Assembly: GCF_035594765.1 (NCBI RefSeq)
Contig: NC_085845.1
Span: 29,506,024-29,570,023 of the forward strand
Source: Anolis carolinensis
Lineage: Eukaryota
Direction of reading: 5' to 3'
Length of the DNA stretch: 64,000 nt
In this document: piece after piece, positions 5,051-55,854 of the stretch
Position numbering within the stretch: position 1 is the stretch's first letter
Layout: each line of letters opens with the position of its first letter
Program-made: the position numbers and the translations under genes
The notes under the pieces: generated by a model
What the model was told of the DNA's origin: nothing
The model's database searches: none
What the model saw: only the letters and a program-made list of their open reading frames with translations

Positions 5051-5464
5051 CATTAATTTTTATCAGCGTCCATGTAGAATTATTGGCCCCAAATAGCCAA
5101 AAAGAACCTCACACTCATATTGATTAATACATTTCAGATTTTACTCCTGTTTTTTTCTGATTGTATACTGAGTTAAAATAATACCAGCTCCTGGGGTTGG
5201 TTTATTTTAGCCAACCCCAGGAGCTGACAGAAAATATCTTGAGATAAACAAAACATATATGGATCTCTAAATTAAAATCAGAAAGAATAGGAACAAAGTC
5301 TGGGACTTTCGGTCTTGCAGATGAGCCCTGTAAATTGGAAATGACTTGGAGGAACACAACAAAAACAAATATTTAAAATGTGTTGTCGAAGGCTTTCATG
5401 GCCAGGATCACAGGGTTGTTGTATGTCTTTCGGGCTGTGTGGCCATGTTCCAGAAGCATTCTCT

Positions 5465-5505
5465 CCTGACGTTTCGCCCACATCAATGGCAGGCATCCTC
5501 AGAGG
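5465..5505 (-). ncRNA. Minimal type I hammerhead ribozyme (sense to ELOVL6)
   Basis: Reverse-complement copy of the same motif with an intact core. Confidence 0.8.
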
Positions 5506-5532
5506 TTGTGAGGTAACCTCACAACCTCACAA

Positions 5533-5573
5533 CCTCTGAGGATGCCTGCCATAGATGTGGGCGAAACGTCAGG
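5533..5573 (+). ncRNA. Minimal type I hammerhead ribozyme
   Basis: CCT-CTGAGGA-stem II (GCCTGC/GTGGGC with GU pairs)-GAAA-CG-TC-AGG. Palindromic ACGT replaces stem III; predicted cleavage after C5570. Confidence 0.8.
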
Positions 5574-6062
5574 AGAGAATGCTTCTGGAACATGGCCACA
5601 CAGCCCGAAAGACATACAACAACCCCAAATATTTAAAATGCTTGTGTAACTATCTGTATATTCATCTCTGTATATTAAATTCAAAAGATTATCAAAACTT
5701 TAAAAACCCCAAACAAAACTGCCAGATATGCAAAGGTTTCAGATAAAAGAAGGAATAAATCCAAAATCCCATTCTCTAATTCATCATAACCAAAATACAT
5801 TTATTTCAGAAAAATGCATCTGTTATTCCTGACATGACATTTATATTCAAGCTACTTTAAGTAGGTCAGAAACTATATTTATATATATTAGGTCACTTCA
5901 CTGCTTTTTAATTAGCTCCTTGTTTCTGACTTTTAAAGGTCACAAATTATCTATATTATCTCCATACGATATTTCCAAAAACTTGAAATAATCTCATGTT
6001 ACTGCCATATTGGCCTGACATAATCTGTGCAGGAATTCTCACTTCACCTCCAAGACATTTTA

Positions 6063-6624: not shown

Positions 6625-7460
6625 GAGAATCATAGAGTTGAAAGAACCACATGGACCATGTAGTCCAACACCTACCACGCAGGAAAGCACAATCAAAGTA
6701 CTACTGATAGATGGCCATCCGGCCTCTGTTTAAAAGCCTCCAAGGTAGGAGCTTCCACCACACTCTCAGGCAGAGAGTTCCAATGCTGAACAGCTCTTAC
6801 AATCAGGAAGTTCTTCCTAATCTTCAGGTGGAATCTCCTTTCCTGTAATTTGAACCCACTGCTCTGAGTCCTAGTTTCCAGGGCAGCAGAAAACAGGCCC
6901 GCTCCCTTTTCCTTATGACATCCTGTCACATATTTATATATGGCTATCACGTCTCCTCTCAGCCTTCTCTTCTGCAGGGTAAACATACCCAGCTCTTTAA
7001 GATGCTCCTCAAAGCACATAGTCTCCAGATCTTTGATCATTTTAGTTGCCCTCCTCTGGACACCTTCCAGCTTGTCAATATCTCTTCTAAACTGTGGTGC
7101 CCAGAATTGGAAACAGTATTCCAGGTGAGGTCTACCTGAAGCAGAATAGAGAAGCACCATGACCTCCCTCAATCTAGGCACTATACTTTTGATGCAGCCC
7201 AAAATCCCATTGGTTTTTTAAGCTGCTGCATCACACTGTTGCCTCATGTTCAACTTATTGTCCACAAAGACTCCAAGATCTTCCTCATGTGGACTGTTGT
7301 CAAACCAGGCATTCCCCATTCTGTATCTTTGCATTTCATTTTTTTCTAACTGTAGTATCTTAGATTTGTCCTTGAAATTCTTTTTATTAGTTTTGGCCCA
7401 GCTCTCTAATCTGTTGAGGTCGCTTTGAATTCTGACCCTGTCCTCTGGAGTATTAGCTAT
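6625..7460 (-). mobile_element. CR1 LINE, 5'-truncated and decayed
   Basis: ORF 6693-7202 has [20 protein letters not shown] and LQKRRLRGD. (TTCTATGA)-type tail at the low end. Confidence 0.93.
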
Positions 7461-34335: not shown

Positions 34336-34462
34336 TGTGTTGTCGAAGGCTTTCATGGCCGGGATCACAGGGTTGTTGTATGTCTTTTGGGCTGTGTGGC
34401 CATGTTCCAGAAGTATTCTCTCCTGACGTTTCGCCCACATCTATGGCAGGCATCCTCAGAGG
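34336..34462 (-). mobile_element. Penelope-like element 3' end (single arm) with TSD
   Basis: Nearly identical to 5381-5510; TTGTGAATA at 34327-34335 and 34463-34471. Confidence 0.85.
34422..34462 (-). ncRNA. Minimal type I hammerhead ribozyme (sense to ELOVL6)
   Basis: Minus strand CCT-CTGAGGA-TGCCTGCCATAGATGTGGGC-GAAA-CGTC-AGG. Confidence 0.8.
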
Positions 34463-43655: not shown

Positions 43656-44546
43656 CTTTCACCCTCCCTATTCAACTTGTACGCAGAACACATCATGCGA
43701 CATGCGGGGCTTGAGGAATCCAAAGCCGGAGTTAAAATTGCTGGAAGAAATATTAACAACCTTAGGTAGGCAGATGACACCACTCTGATGGCCGAAAGCG
43801 AGGAGGAGTTGAAGAGCCTTATCACCAAGGTGAAAGAAGAAAGTGCAAAAGCTGGGTTGCAGTTAAACGTCAAGAAAACCAAGATCATGGCAACTACACC
43901 TATTGATAACTGGCAAATAGAGGGAGAAAGCGTGGAGGCAGTGACAGACTTTATATTTCTAGGCGCGAAGATCACTGCAGATGCAGACTCCAGCCAGGAA
44001 ATCAGAAGACGTTTACTTCTTGGGAGGAGAGCAATGGCCAACGTTGACAAAATAGTGAAGAGCAGAGACATCACACTGGCAACAAAGGTCCGCATAGTCA
44101 AAGCAATGGTATTCCCCATAGTAACCTATGGATGCGAGAGCTGGACCACAAGGAAGGCTGAGCAAAGGAAGATAGATGCTTTTGAACTCTGGTGCTGGAG
44201 GAAAATCCTGAGAGTGCCTTGGACCGCAAGAAGATCCAACCAGTCCATCCTCCAGGAAATAATGCCCAGCTGCTCACTGGAGGGAAGGATATTAGAGGCA
44301 AAGCTGAAGTATTTTGGCCACATCATGAGGAGACAGGAAAGATTGGAAAAGATCACGATGCTGGGGAAAATGGAAGGAAAAAGGAAGAGAGGCCGACCAA
44401 GGGCAAGATGGATGGATGGTATCCTTGAAGTGACTGGGTTGACCTTGAAGGAACTGGGGGTGGTGACGGCCGACAGGGAGCTCTGGCATGGGCTGGTCCA
44501 TGAGGCCACGAAGAGTCGGAGATGACTAAACAACAGCAGCAGGAGT
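43656..44546 (+). mobile_element. RTE-BovB LINE, 5'-truncated
   Basis: GVKIAGRNINNLR*ADDTTLMAESEEELKSL, YGCESWT, RKIDAFELWCWR, GKRKRGRPRARWMDGI. Tail GAAGAGTCGGAGATGACTAAACAAC; TSD CTGATGTTA/CCGATGTTA. Confidence 0.95.
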
Positions 44547-48279: not shown

Positions 48280-49818
48280 GGGCTCTTCCAGACAGGCTCA
48301 AAAATGTGGGACCTGTCGGTCTTTTATCTGAGGCATCCAAATTACGCTCACCAATGCGTCGTCTTCATCCTGGAAAGAAGTGACAAGTGGAGTGCCGCAG
48401 GGCTCCGTCCTGGGCCCGGTTCTATTCAACATCTTTATTAACAACTTAGACGAAGGGTTAGAAGGCACAATCATAAAGTTTGCAGACGACACAAAACTGG
48501 GAGGGATAGCTAACACTCCAGAAGACAGGAGCAGAATTCAAAATGATCTTGACAGACTAGAGAGATGGGCCGAAACTAACAAAATGAAGTTCAACAGGGA
48601 CAAATGCAAGATACTTCACTTCGGCAGAAAAAATGGAAATCAAAGATACAGAATGGGGGACGCCTGGCTTGACAGCACTGTGTGTGAAAAAGACCTTGGA
48701 GTCGTCGTGGACAACAAGTTAAACATGAGCCAACAATGTGATGCGGCAGTGAAAAAAGCCAACGGGATTCTGGCCTGCATCAATAGGGGAATAGCGTCTA
48801 GATCCAGGGAAGTCATGCTCCCCCTCTATTCTGCCTTGGTCAGACCACACCTGGAATACTGCGTCCAATTCTGGGCACCACAGTTGAAGGGAGATGTTGA
48901 CAAGCTGGAAAGCGTCCAGAGGAGGGCAACTAAAATGATCAAGGGTCTGGAGAACAAGCCCTATGAGGAGCGGCGTAAAGAGCTGGGCATATTTAGCCTG
49001 CAGAAGAGAAGGCTGAGAGGAGACATGATAGCCATGTACAAATACGTGAAGGGAAGTCATAGGCAGGAGGGAGCAAGCTTGTTTTCTGCTGCCCTGCAGA
49101 CTAGGACACGGAACAATGGCTTCAAACTACAGGAAAGGAGATTCCACCTGAACATCAGGAAGAACTTCCTCACTGTGAGAGCTGTTCGACAGTGGAACTC
49201 TCTCCCCCAGACTCCTTCTTTGGAAGCTTTTAAGCAGAGGCTGGATGGCCATCTGTTGGGGGGTGCTTTGAATGCGATTTCCTGCTTCTTAGCAGGGGAT
49301 TGGACTGAATGGCCCATGAGGTCTCTTCCAACTCTACTATTCTATGATTCTATGATTCTATGAAAAGGCGAATAAATTCAGAACAAAGCAGAGTTTACCT
49401 GCTTTGTTCTGAATTAATTAGCTACCCCATTAGATCCAGGCCTTTTTAAAAGGACAGGGTCTAATGGGGTATTGGGCCTGTGGGGACTCACTTCTGGGAT
49501 TACCCAAGATGAGTCCCCACAGCCATCTTTCTTAAATATATCCTGTAATTGATGATAATGAAACCAGTTATTTATCCCTAATTCTTCTCTCCCTTTTAGT
49601 TTTCATTGTCCTTTTTCTTCAATAAAGATAATACTTATAAGTTCTCAGTTCCTCATTATATGCTGTTTTAACACTGCTTCCAAAGGATGAAGCCATAAAA
49701 GGATTTTCTGCTCCATCACTTCCATCTGGACACCCCACCAGGAAATCCACTTTTTTGGGGGGGAGGGGTGGAATTAAACACACAAATGTGCGGGTTAAAC
49801 CCATGTCTGGAAATGTCC
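48280..49818. mobile_element. PIF/Harbinger-like non-autonomous transposon hosting a CR1
   Basis: TAT|GGGCTCTTCCAGACA ... TGTCTGGAAATGTCC|TAT (3-bp TSD); a related terminus occurs at about 55805-55848. Confidence 0.6.
48346..49363 (+). mobile_element. Young 5'-truncated CR1 LINE with open RT C-terminal frame
   Basis: [38 protein letters not shown]; (TTCTATGA)3 tail. Confidence 0.97.
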
Positions 49819-51530: not shown

Positions 51531-52671
51531 AGCTGTTCCTTTACCCCAGATGAACTACTGCAGTTGGATGGTGCCTAGAGCTTCACCCCTCCTGCCAGAG
51601 AAGAGGCACACCAGTGCTGTCAAACTATATCATGCAGCCAAATGCAAAGGAAACATGCACATGAAGATTTATGTTCTGCTGGCAGTATTGGTAGATTTCA
51701 GTCTGAAAAAAGCAGCTGTGCCTGCCATGTAGCCAAGTGTTTAAAGTAGGTTCTGTATATTCTGTGATACCCCCTCCCCCAAATTATGCCAGTGTTCAAA
51801 GTTGATAGATACAGGGTGTAGTTTTGTGCAAGTATACTGTAGAAAGAGGTATCTTGTACTTTCTTATGCGATTGACTTTCTGCCATGCTTCTTGCAAGTG
51901 AAGACTTATGCCAGTTTAGGATGCTTCCAACCATACAGCGCCTAGCAATACTGATTAACACATAATAGTCACACACCCTTTTAGGGGTATTTTTGCTTTC
52001 CTCACATAATAGTTGCAGCCTTGATTCATCTGCTAAACATACTGCTAGCAGATGACCAGCATATGGAAGCAGAGGAAGACAGCTGTAAAAGGTCTAGCTA
52101 GGCTTCCATCTCCACGTACGTATCTAGCTGTACTGAATAAACAACAGCTTTGCACATCTGTTCGCCCTCTTTCAGCTATGACACTCCACTCACCTGTACA
52201 ACCCAGTGCTCACCCAAAAGCACTGAGTTGAAGAGAGTAAAAAGTTTCCCCTGACGTTAAGTACCACTCTCTTAAATCCCGTGCTTTTGGATTCAGCAGC
52301 ATGAAGCACTATAGCTGAAAAGGAAGTTAGCATGTGGGCTATTTTTTTCATTGTGTAATAGTCACGCCTCCACTTTTTTTTTTTTGTAAAAGTGACTATT
52401 ATATGATAAAATATGGAATTCAGACTTTTCTTTCTTCACAGATTTTTCTATGGTTAATAAATAGTTATCCAAAGAAGCATAGAAAAAAGTGGAAATTCAG
52501 GAAAAAGGACAAAAGTGGAAGAACATGAAATAAATATCCGACTATAAGTTATCTGATGTAGAAAGGTCAGTAGTAAACAAAGGTCTATCATTTGTTCCCA
52601 CCCCTAAATTTAATGCATTTTGAGCACGAATAGATTTATTCAAGCTATTTAGAACCATCCGCTTAAGAGAC

Positions 52672-54720
52672 ATGTTTAAAGACAGCATATCCAACACAAC
52701 CACAGATCCTTTCAAACCTAAAAGTACCTTCTGCCCTTCCACAGATAACATTTACATTAAATGCTTTGAAAAAGCTGTAGAGAGGGACTTTAACAAGCTA
52801 ACTACTCATAGACAACCATACCACTCAAATTTATCAGAATTAGAAAGAACCACTCTGGTCAAATTGAGCAACCTTAAAGAGGTAGTCTGGAAACCAGCAG
52901 ATAAAGGGGGAGCTATAGTATTACTTAACAAAAGAGATTATATTAAGGAAGTCAACCTCCAGTTATCAAATAGTAAATTCTACCAACCTATTGCAACAGA
53001 CCCCACTAAACACATTCAGTCCCTTATTAGGGTGGTGTGTCAAGAGGGATTGTCCATGGGATTTATTTCTTCTTCTACATTTAAATACTTACAAAATGAC
53101 TTCCCCAGGATACCTATCTTTTATATTCTTCCTAAGATTCATAAAGGCATCACTCCACCCCCAGGCCGACCTATTATTTCTGGTTCATCTTCTGTATTGG
53201 AACCAGTTGCTAAATATCTAGACTCCTTTTACCAACCATTTGTCCCTCTCTGTGATTCCTACATTAAAGACACAAAGCACTTCATTAATATCGTAGAAAA
53301 TCTCAAAATTGAGGACGACAGCATTTTAGTTACGATTGATGTCACCTCACTCTATACTAACATTCCACTAGATGAGGCTCGTACCATCATAGAGAATATC
53401 CTTCGTAGGAGAACAAAATTGCAACCACCTACACATTTCTTGATGGACCTGTTAGATATAGTACTGGAGAAAAATTATTTCCGTTTTCAAAACCAATTTT
53501 ACTTTCAGACCTTCGGTGTCGCTATGGGAAGTCCGTTAGCCCCATCGATTGCCAATCTATTCATGGCACATTTAGAAAACACTATATTGCTTAATCCATC
53601 TTTAAATATGTACTATTCTAATATAATATACTATGGCCGATTTATTGATGATATATTCATAGTATTTAAAACAACTGAGGCCGCAGTAGGATTCTCTAAT
53701 TGGATTGACACTATACATACGTCTATTAAGTTTACCAGTCATCTCAACCTGTCACATATCAATTTTTTAGATGTTACTGTGTATAAATATCATAACAAAC
53801 TTTTGGTCAAGAACTTCAGAAAACCATCAGATAAAAATTCTTTTCTTCATTATAACAGCTTCCACCACTTTGGTTTAAAGACCAATCTTCCATTTTCACA
53901 ACTACTTAGACTAAAGCGTAACTCAAGCTCTAATGAACACTTCATTCATGAAAGCCTGACCTTAAGCCAGGAGTTTAGAAGTAGAGGCTATCCTAAACAT
54001 GTCATCAAAAAGGCATTAATTAAAGCTGAAAAAACTGATAGAACCACCCTACTGAAAGAATCTGCTAAACCAACTAAAAATCAAATTATCTGGACACAAG
54101 AATTATCGCATTACTCCAAACACATAATCCAAATTATAAAAAAGCACTGGCATCTTCTTCAAGATATTTCAGGTTGTGATAAATTACCTATTTTTGGAAA
54201 CAGGCGTACTAAAAATATTAGAGAATATTTAATCCATACAGATTTAATCACTCCCATTAGTACACCGAAGAGCACCCTGAGAGGCCATTATCCTTGTGGT
54301 CACTGTAAGTGTTGTCCTCAATCTTGGAAGACTAAGGAGATATATAATCATAGGAACAAAGTGGGCACCACACTAAAACATTTTTCTACTTGTAATAGCA
54401 GCAATGTAATCTACCTCTTGACATGTGGCTGTGATCTCTGGTATATCGGAAAAACAACCAGATCCTTGAGAATCAGAATCTCTGAACATAAATCCAGAAT
54501 CAAAAATTTATCTACAGAATCTCTTTTATATTCACACTTCACCCAATACAAACATTCATCTACCTCATTTAAATTTTGTGCTCTGGAATGCATCTCTCAA
54601 AAACCTTTCATGGACTTGGAAAAACTATTATCCCAAAGGGAAATGTACTGGATCTTTAAGTTTAAAACCTTTTCCCCTCAGGGACTTAATGAATCACTTA
54701 ATTTTAGCTGTTTCCTTTAA
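52672..54720 (+). CDS. Penelope-type reverse transcriptase / GIY-YIG endonuclease (682 aa open; N-terminus disrupted upstream)
   Basis: KPADKGGAIV, GRPIISG, IDVTSLYTNIP, GVAMGSPLAPSIANLFM, RFIDDIF, NFLDV; linker CGHCKCC; endonuclease NVIYLLTCGCDLWYIGKTTRSLRIRISEH...REMYWI...PQGLNE. Confidence 0.95.
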   Translation: MFKDSISNTTTDPFKPKSTFCPSTDNIYIKCFEKAVERDFNKLTTHRQPYHSNLSELERTTLVKLSNLKEVVWKPADKGGAIVLLNKRDYIKEVNLQLSNSKFYQPIATDPTKHIQSLIRVVCQEGLSMGFISSSTFKYLQNDFPRIPIFYILPKIHKGITPPPGRPIISGSSSVLEPVAKYLDSFYQPFVPLCDSYIKDTKHFINIVENLKIEDDSILVTIDVTSLYTNIPLDEARTIIENILRRRTKLQPPTHFLMDLLDIVLEKNYFRFQNQFYFQTFGVAMGSPLAPSIANLFMAHLENTILLNPSLNMYYSNIIYYGRFIDDIFIVFKTTEAAVGFSNWIDTIHTSIKFTSHLNLSHINFLDVTVYKYHNKLLVKNFRKPSDKNSFLHYNSFHHFGLKTNLPFSQLLRLKRNSSSNEHFIHESLTLSQEFRSRGYPKHVIKKALIKAEKTDRTTLLKESAKPTKNQIIWTQELSHYSKHIIQIIKKHWHLLQDISGCDKLPIFGNRRTKNIREYLIHTDLITPISTPKSTLRGHYPCGHCKCCPQSWKTKEIYNHRNKVGTTLKHFSTCNSSNVIYLLTCGCDLWYIGKTTRSLRIRISEHKSRIKNLSTESLLYSHFTQYKHSSTSFKFCALECISQKPFMDLEKLLSQREMYWIFKFKTFSPQGLNESLNFSCFL

Positions 54721-54932
54721 ACCTTCAAGTACTCTTTAAAAACCTTTGAATGAACCTCCAGAATTACTCGCAGTTGAAATCACCACAAGCAGAGTCACTC
54801 AGTGAAAGCATTTAGCACTATGTAAGTATAATACTGTTATATGGGTTACCTTTACTTCTGTTAATACTGCTGGTAAAATACTTGTTACTCTATGTTTTGT
54901 TTTAGATAGAAATTCATTGTTGCTGAGTTTAA

Positions 54933-54998
54933 CAACTCCTGAAGAAGGGGTTTTTCCCTGAAACAGGGTCAAAAATACCCGGGACCCCTGTAGACTTG
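54933..54998 (+). ncRNA. Type I hammerhead ribozyme
   Basis: Stem I CAACTC/GACTTG (one mismatch), CTGAAGA at 54939-54945, stem II AGGG/CCCT, GAAA at 54960-54963, stem III CAGGG/CCCTG, cleavage triplet GTA (after 54992). Confidence 0.85.
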
Positions 54999-55854
54999 GG
55001 ACTTTATTTGGACTTTACTTTTGAAGACTTTTTTGAGAGCGGTGCTCCATCATTATTTTCTTCAATCCAGTATACAGCAACACGACCAACCATCTGTTTG
55101 GAAGGTATTTTCATTGACTGTATCCCTGAAGCCTATATGTATTGGAACCAATACCAGACTTGAACAACTTTTGTGTTAGAGCTGTTGCTCCTTTTCATTT
55201 TGTCAGGTACGGCCAAATTGAGCTTTGTACGAGGAACTGTAACAATATATGTCATTTGGACACATTTTCTTTGTACATAGACAATCGTTTGTGTGTATAG
55301 ATACTTTACAAGTATTCTGGGACTTTGTATAATATCCCTCTTTACCCCTGTGGAGACTGCTTCCCTCCCATGCCGGTTTTTAAAAGCCCGAAACAGCTGA
55401 TCAGCTGTTCAAGCTCCCACAAACAGCTGATTTCCAGCTGGTTTCAAGAGAAGAGAAGTGGAGAGACACTAGAAGTCTCTGAAAGTGTTTATTTTAAACT
55501 TTATAATATTAAATAGATCATGAATAAGTAACTGGAGAAAGAGGGAAATCTGGTGGCATTTTTTAATAAAAATCCTGCCGTTATGATGCTTATAGGCACA
55601 CAAAGGAATCTCTTCATATTTGTATTAGGATACTCGCTTATGTGTGCACATAAGCATCAGCACATAACTGATTTAAAAAAAAAAATCCAACTTCCAGCAG
55701 AAGTTCCCCATCCTCCCTCCATTTTATCTTGAGACACAGAAGGGCTCTGAGGACGACAGGGGAAGAAAGCCTGGGACCAGCAGGTCTATTGCGGGTTTAT
55801 TTATCCCACAAATTAATCCCACATTTTGGCACTGTCTGGAAGCACCCCCACTGA

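Follow-up and report, generated by a model that had tools for sequence, protein, structure and literature searches.

A type I hammerhead motif with a long helix III and a conserved loop palindrome in a Neptune-type Penelope-like element of a lizard genome

Introduction

Hammerhead ribozymes are already known as a class in Penelope-like elements (PLEs), and their function for these elements has been called unclear (PMC8557442). In metazoan PLEs the motif has been described as a minimal or short-palindrome type I hammerhead that lies in the terminal repeat and exhibits the core CUGANGAH with an extra nucleotide, a short helix I and a palindrome at the apex of helix III (PMC4209133); in the 56-motif alignment of that study (Fig. 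S3), which holds no Anolis motif, the helix III region reaches about 10 nt at most. Fungal and protist PLE hammerheads possess a large, stable helix III with no obvious canonical tertiary contact; these belong to endonuclease-deficient elements, one of them has been shown to cleave as a monomer, and a conserved loop palindrome is not described for them in the accessible text (PMC4209133). PAc/Poseidon_Ac stems from Anolis carolinensis, which is also the likely host of the element analysed here: in its hammerhead, helix III lacks a loop and the cut falls within the start of the ORF, cleavage is protein-assisted, uncut RNA is the main template with no reads ending at the cut, and copies end in a 30-nt tail (PMC11167929). 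In the repeat hammerheads of Aedes (PMC3088659, Fig. S8 legend) and the double hammerheads of newt and ASBVd, loop III is predicted to pair fully in a dimer stem of 10 contiguous bp.

The hammerhead that we analyse here lies in a 64,000-nucleotide stretch of DNA (the window) and combines traits of these systems. It shares with the metazoan PLE motifs the type I arrangement in a terminal repeat, the core with its extra nucleotide, the short helix I and the apical palindrome, but the helix III region of this lizard long form extends over 24–32 nt, with a stem of 5–7 bp in most families and a large loop. A helix III that should be stable is common to it and the fungal and protist motifs, although here the element carries an endonuclease. 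As for PAc, the copies end in a tail of about 30 nt and no ends were seen at the cut; in contrast to PAc, the predicted cut is located ~360 nt before ORF1. Full pairing of loop III is predicted in the dimer as for Aedes, newt and ASBVd, yet through two 6-bp helices and a 6-bp palindrome split by asymmetric internal loops. The combination of a long helix III with a conserved loop palindrome appears to be a new form of PLE hammerhead: no title, abstract or passage in the literature searched describes it, though it may be recorded elsewhere, for instance in Repbase.

Results

The hammerhead motif

All hammerhead elements listed by an earlier, sequence-only reading of the window could be located by inspection of the 66 nt at 54933–54998: every core nucleotide, the GUA triplet and a real stem III with a large loop (Table 1). 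The distance to the ORF, given there as about 210 nt, was measured as 212 nt from the end of the stop codon at 54720. With CUGANGA, GAAA and UH placed around three helices of which helix I is open, the segment is, judged by its sequence, a true hammerhead motif of type I, and it sits in a terminal repeat that belongs to a young Neptune-type PLE. A descriptor scan of the window returned two loose matches and one strict match, the latter being this motif, compared to 0.23 loose and 0.01 strict matches per shuffle over 100 shuffles; the Rfam hammerhead models did not match it in two scans (0/26 and 0/4 matches). The C-C mismatch reported for stem I is C54936-C54995, which is fixed in the young subfamily and replaced by C-G in a sister subfamily. 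The A-U pair with which stem II was said to open exists in one of two registers, but is better read as an extra A followed by a G·U pair: this A corresponds to the additional nucleotide known from the hammerheads of PLEs (PMC4209133). The motif thus shows the added nucleotide that separates position 9 from 10.1, the G at 10.1 and the palindrome at the helix III apex of the PLE minimal hammerhead, but not its absent or very short helix III; the palindrome itself had escaped the sequence-only reading. An extended helix I is predicted in most families and loop II is conserved in neither length nor sequence when judged against the canonical metazoan tertiary contact. The predicted minimum-energy fold differs from the hammerhead, with a competing hairpin at 54934–54952 (z=0.02).

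Table 1. Features of the element copy and its hammerhead in the window
Feature	Position	Strand	Basis or remark
Young Neptune-type PLE, 5'-truncated copy	52535..55334	+	Without ORF1 and upstream terminal repeat
Frame with RT, CxxCxxC linker and GIY-YIG endonuclease (698 aa)	52624..54720	+	In-frame stop upstream where relatives read through
Putative transcription start cluster	54755..54781	+	12/65 5' junctions, including all 7 spliced copies of the sample
84-nt GT-AG intron	54822..54905	+	Absent from 9 different genomic copies; junction exact in 6
Predicted extension of helix I	54925-54930/54999-55004	+	Beyond a 2-nt bulge
Helix I, 5' strand	54933..54938	+	Pairs with 54993-54998; mismatch C54936-C54995
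Catalytic core CUGAAGA (54939-54945) and extra A54946, between positions 9 and 10.1	54939..54946	+	Sequence; PMC4209133
Helix II, GGGG-UUUUU-CCCU	54947..54959	+	G·U and 3 G-C; loop UUUUU
GAAA core (54960-54963) and long helix III with 17-nt loop	54960..54991	+	Helix III covaries across families
Helix III strands	54963-54968/54986-54991	+	6 bp; 8 bp counting a bulged C
Loop palindrome CCCGGG, A on either side	54978..54983	+	Kept across families; predicted dimer contact
GUA (54990-54992) and predicted cleavage site 54992/54993	54990..54993	+	Not a copy boundary
Tail, ~30 nt between two 3'-end clusters; putative reverse-transcription start sites	55300..55334	+	Copy ends; PMC11167929

The contrast drawn earlier with the other Penelope family of the window also holds: the minimal motifs of that family, at 5536(+), 5502(-) and 34459(-), have only ACGU as helix III, compared to 6 covarying bp here. 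These motifs are the loop-less minimal hammerheads of Poseidon-type Penelope ends at 5447–5591, a head-to-head inverted pair, and near 34420–34460. The open-reading-frame list contains further remnants at 3–971, 6693–7217, 43770–44525 and 48332–49363, which, by eye, resemble an LTR-retrotransposon pol end and CR1-type and RTE-type LINE fragments.

The host element and its setting

The 698-aa frame shares 98% identity with a protein that bears the label Anolis carolinensis, and the window copy is bounded by a 7-bp direct repeat (52533–52539 and 55331–55337) that is a possible target-site duplication. The full unit measures 3575 bp and contains an ORF1 of 254 aa that overlaps a frame of 753 aa; a genome search with the element gave at least 43 matches at 96–100% identity, with 40 of 639 candidates scored, and copies longer than one unit occur. 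Pfam identified only the RT in the element protein, the GIY-YIG motif was identified by eye, and ORF1 had no Pfam match above cut-off. RT and GIY-YIG domains, tandem and inverted copies, a 30–40 bp tail and a terminal-repeat intron are those of an endonuclease-bearing PLE. The CX2-5CxxC linker of the Neptune clade is present between RT and endonuclease as CGHCKCC; such a linker is also found in Nematis (PMC8557442), so to speak of Neptune is a probable placement by linker motif together with vertebrate distribution (10.64898/2026.07.22.740005), the RT tree having had no named references. Among full-length lizard Neptune elements, ORF1 comprises ~250–280 aa and overlaps the RT frame with a -1 shift (L202–L204, L206, L208), and a purine-rich motif preceded by a stretch rich in U is present at the RT-frame start in 6/6 families or subfamilies (L202, on the minus strand; L204–L208): the overlap is a candidate for programmed frameshifting.

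ELO-family exons are located on the minus strand at either side of the plus-strand element, one of them inside the window near 2175–2306 and the first coding exon ~8 kb beyond the window end; the element is therefore antisense, as had been proposed, and intronic. The gene is presumably ELOVL6, judging by the exon peptides. Owing to its orientation the window copy would not cut the ELOVL6 transcript; this lone truncated copy is likely a passenger and likely has no effect on ELOVL6.

Conservation across lizard families

The sequence-only reading had named conservation of the core and covariation across copies as checks. In the young family the core is unchanged in 36/36 matches (30 loci, some overlapping), but at 99% identity covariation within this family is uninformative; 12 of 17 older copies with an intact stem II exhibit G-C at 10.1-11.1. 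The genome was also searched with the C-termini of four diverged relatives, and 60 further loci were picked by hand from the matches, with the long form found in 25, a short form in 8 and no detectable motif in 27. The helix III of the short form is ACCGGU or a one-base variant in all 8. Comparison of 15 core-anchored long-form representatives (locus L137 was left out of this pairing comparison and of the energy comparison) revealed compensatory changes in helices I and II and at positions 3–5 of helix III, the latter switching among A-U, U-A and G-C; the extra A before helix II is present in 15/15, and the pair 10.1-11.1 is G-C in 8 and G·U in 7. In a 14-row alignment the count was restricted to 8 in-register pairs, as MAFFT shifted the helix III register beyond 2 pairs: 92% of the cells are paired and 14 changes are two-sided, a score reached in 0/500 shuffles and inflated by the relatedness of the families. 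Core and helices are thus kept, and all three helices covary, across diverged lizard families with an endonuclease identity of about 50–80%, and the covariation of helix III indicates that the long helix III is selected. In several families helix II has no more than 2 bp, with a helix I of 4–5 bp.

Two variations of the core were also seen. In one family (L165, L166, L169, L189, L190) a 15-nt duplication places two tandem CUGAAGA cores before one GAAA, and in whole families, some of them young and intact (those of L032, L091, L154 and L088), the fourth position of the core is occupied by A (CAGANGA) or C (CCGAGGA).

The loop palindrome

With one representative taken per family, the loop contains CCCGGG in 9 of 12 and ACCGGG, CCTAGG and CCTGGG in one each, with an A on both sides in 11. 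A 6-bp palindrome is present in 10/12 compared to 1.4 expected, a count that is not independent because the families are related; the flanks are unalignable in 58/66 family pairs, with a CpG o/e of 0.28. The 25 long-form diverged loci show CCCGGG (16), CCTGGG (4), ACCGGG (2), ACCAGG (1) or a deleted loop (2). In the sister clade, helix III is ACCGGU in 20/20 close copies, so that a CCGG centre is common to the long-form loop palindrome and the dimer-type palindrome of that clade. One old family has the loop ACCGGU in two copies and one CpG-decayed copy, and the sister subfamily of these copies has ACCGGG, in which only the 4-bp CCGG is palindromic. The best pairing partner of the palindrome is itself in 9/9, which points to self-pairing. 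Covariation within the palindrome is thin and its sequence almost invariant, such that self-pairing cannot be distinguished on this ground from a sequence-specific site. When loops in which the outer pair differs were sought, 9 matches came up compared to 48 in a reversed control, and 1 was a real loop variant. CCTAGG was rejected as a compensatory palindrome, being a single copy that equals double CpG decay.

Among 80 metagenome loci with related proteins, 30 carry a motif; helix III is short in 29 of these and nearly always palindromic, and one is long without a palindrome. No hammerhead was detected in the five nearest metagenome relatives, with 0.8–1.3 kb of downstream sequence. A split type I hammerhead was seen in 8 of 12 loci examined from a well-supported Neptune-like metagenome clade, counted without a shuffle control, in which the helix III strands (5–9 bp) and the helix I partner lie 140–315 nt apart (L218, L219, L220, L223, L227, L231, L245, L246). 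Our quick tree does not resolve the lizard families.

Copy ends and spliced copies

That cleavage defines the RNA end, as the sequence-only reading suggested, is not borne out by the copies. We examined 70 loci, taken from 100 of the 144 exact matches to a 24-mer near the 3' end: of their 88 3' ends, 27 fall at 55300–55304 and 47 at 55331–55336 (74/88 in total), which is a tail signature and lies 308–342 nt beyond the predicted cut. At the 5' side, the 65 junctions between 54720 and 55250 in these loci all lie more than 3 nt away from the cut, which 55 segments cross; as 0/65 would arise by chance 42% of the time, this means no enrichment rather than depletion. The junction cluster at 54755–54781 has a post hoc p of about 1e-4. 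All 7 spliced copies of the sample start in this cluster, six ending the intron at 54905 and one 4 nt later; beyond the sample, three older copies fit the 54905 junction with substitutions, which makes nine with the regular intron and a tenth with the later acceptor. In 10/10 the sequence continues past the cut position, where two of the older copies are mutated. They are most readily interpreted as copies of 5' leaders that were spliced but not cut. The search for copies starting at the cut gave 6 matches with a non-A before it, two of which align from 54993, and both were explained otherwise: one is an inversion junction with microhomology, the other a short tandem duplication. Since a circularised cut RNA would leave no junction at the cut, the circular route stays open to the element, and a role of the hammerhead in making unit-length or circular RNA is possible.

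Further 5' junctions lie on either side of the hammerhead, 5/65 at 54942–54952 and 6/65 at 55003–55019 (window-equivalent positions), and are possibly reverse-transcriptase stalls at the structure. In a second, old Neptune family (L374 versus L377) an intron likewise lies upstream of the hammerhead, and at least one genomic copy is spliced.

Energy predictions

The active monomer is predicted at 5.5 kcal/mol above the minimum for the window motif (1.6–9.9 across the 15 representatives); the predicted active share is 4e-5. The double hammerhead, modelled such that the helix III strands are exchanged and the palindromes pair, lies 9.3 kcal/mol below two active monomers in the window family and 8.3–14.7 below them in 14/15 representatives, an advantage exceeding that of at least 92% of the shuffled loops. 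It is nevertheless 5.0 kcal/mol above the monomer ensemble in the window family and below the ensemble in 3/15 only: the predicted ground state is neither active form, in energy models that penalise hammerhead junctions and were run with no known-active control. That the palindrome inhibits the monomer was not supported, as predicted monomer folding is no lower than with shuffled loops.

Discussion

We propose, with a probability of about one half, that the motif acts as a slow, conditional ribozyme that would cleave mainly when two copies pair via the loop palindrome. Transcription would start near 54766, and a tandem transcript would carry two hammerheads 3575 nt apart; the CCCGGG loops could then pair and the helix III strands swap to give the double hammerhead, perhaps with help of the element's protein. 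Many RNAs would remain uncut and be copied from the tail, whereas two cuts in one RNA would release a molecule of unit length, which might then become circular.

The sequence-only reading had favoured cleavage as a monomer, which is not supported as stated, given the palindrome common with the dimer-type sister clade and the energy of the active monomer. In its fuller version, each copy is able to cut on its own by virtue of the long helix III, read-through transcripts are trimmed to unit length, circularised and copied from the tail, and the palindrome is a relic or of minor importance. The covarying helix III of 5–7 bp in most long-form families speaks for this, a helix of 6 bp should be stable alone, helix I can possibly be extended across a bulge, long or split helix III is seen in metagenome relatives as well, copies beyond one unit exist, which could stem from a circle, and monomer cleavage is known for one fungal PLE hammerhead whose helix III is large (PMC4209133). 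However, the CpG palindrome is retained though its flanks are unalignable, spliced copies that begin at the putative start site continue across the cut, at which no junction was found, the early hairpin is predicted to trap helix I, core and helix II, and the helices I and II of several families are very short; we therefore regard independent cleavage of each copy as rather unlikely. The near-invariance of the palindrome and of its flanking A residues, with little compensatory change, would equally be expected if the loop ACCCGGGA were a sequence-specific site for the element's protein or a host factor, or one that acts as DNA within the promoter, with cleavage by a protein-assisted monomer as seen for the anole Poseidon (PMC11167929). 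This appears improbable to us: the site occupies the position of the helix III palindrome of dimer-type relatives, which is variable yet nearly always palindromic, and 29 of the 30 metagenome motifs have a short helix III.

The ribozyme may also be crippled in the young subfamily, by the C-C mismatch, the G·U pair at 10.1-11.1 and the competing hairpin, and simply be carried along in a transposition that does not need it. The fixed mismatch and the small predicted active share fit such a loss, cleavage was dispensable in vitro for PAc (PMC11167929) and Naiad elements exist without canonical hammerheads (PMC8557442), but the core and helices are kept over the diverged families and G·U is found at this pair in 7 of the 15 representatives, which makes a dead passenger a very improbable explanation. 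Pairing of two copies through the loop could also serve more than cleavage. At the retroviral dimer initiation site, a hairpin loop contains a GC palindrome of 6 nt between purines; the third arm of the Neptune hammerhead resembles it in this respect, the lizard hairpin, in contrast to the retroviral one, forming part of a ribozyme. It is conceivable, if doubtful, that this arm is a retrovirus-like dimer initiation signal, in which kissing at CCCGGG would join two RNAs of the element, or the two repeats of a single RNA, gate cleavage and keep two templates together for the tandem and inverted insertions that are typical of PLEs.

Within one lizard clade, loop-less and long-armed hammerheads are thus found with a common CCGG palindrome in young, intact families. 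With both forms at hand, it can be tested directly whether dimers merely make up for a weak helix III or are themselves selected. In addition, the spliced copies provide genomic evidence for uncut RNA as a template in vivo, in agreement with the in vitro result for Poseidon.
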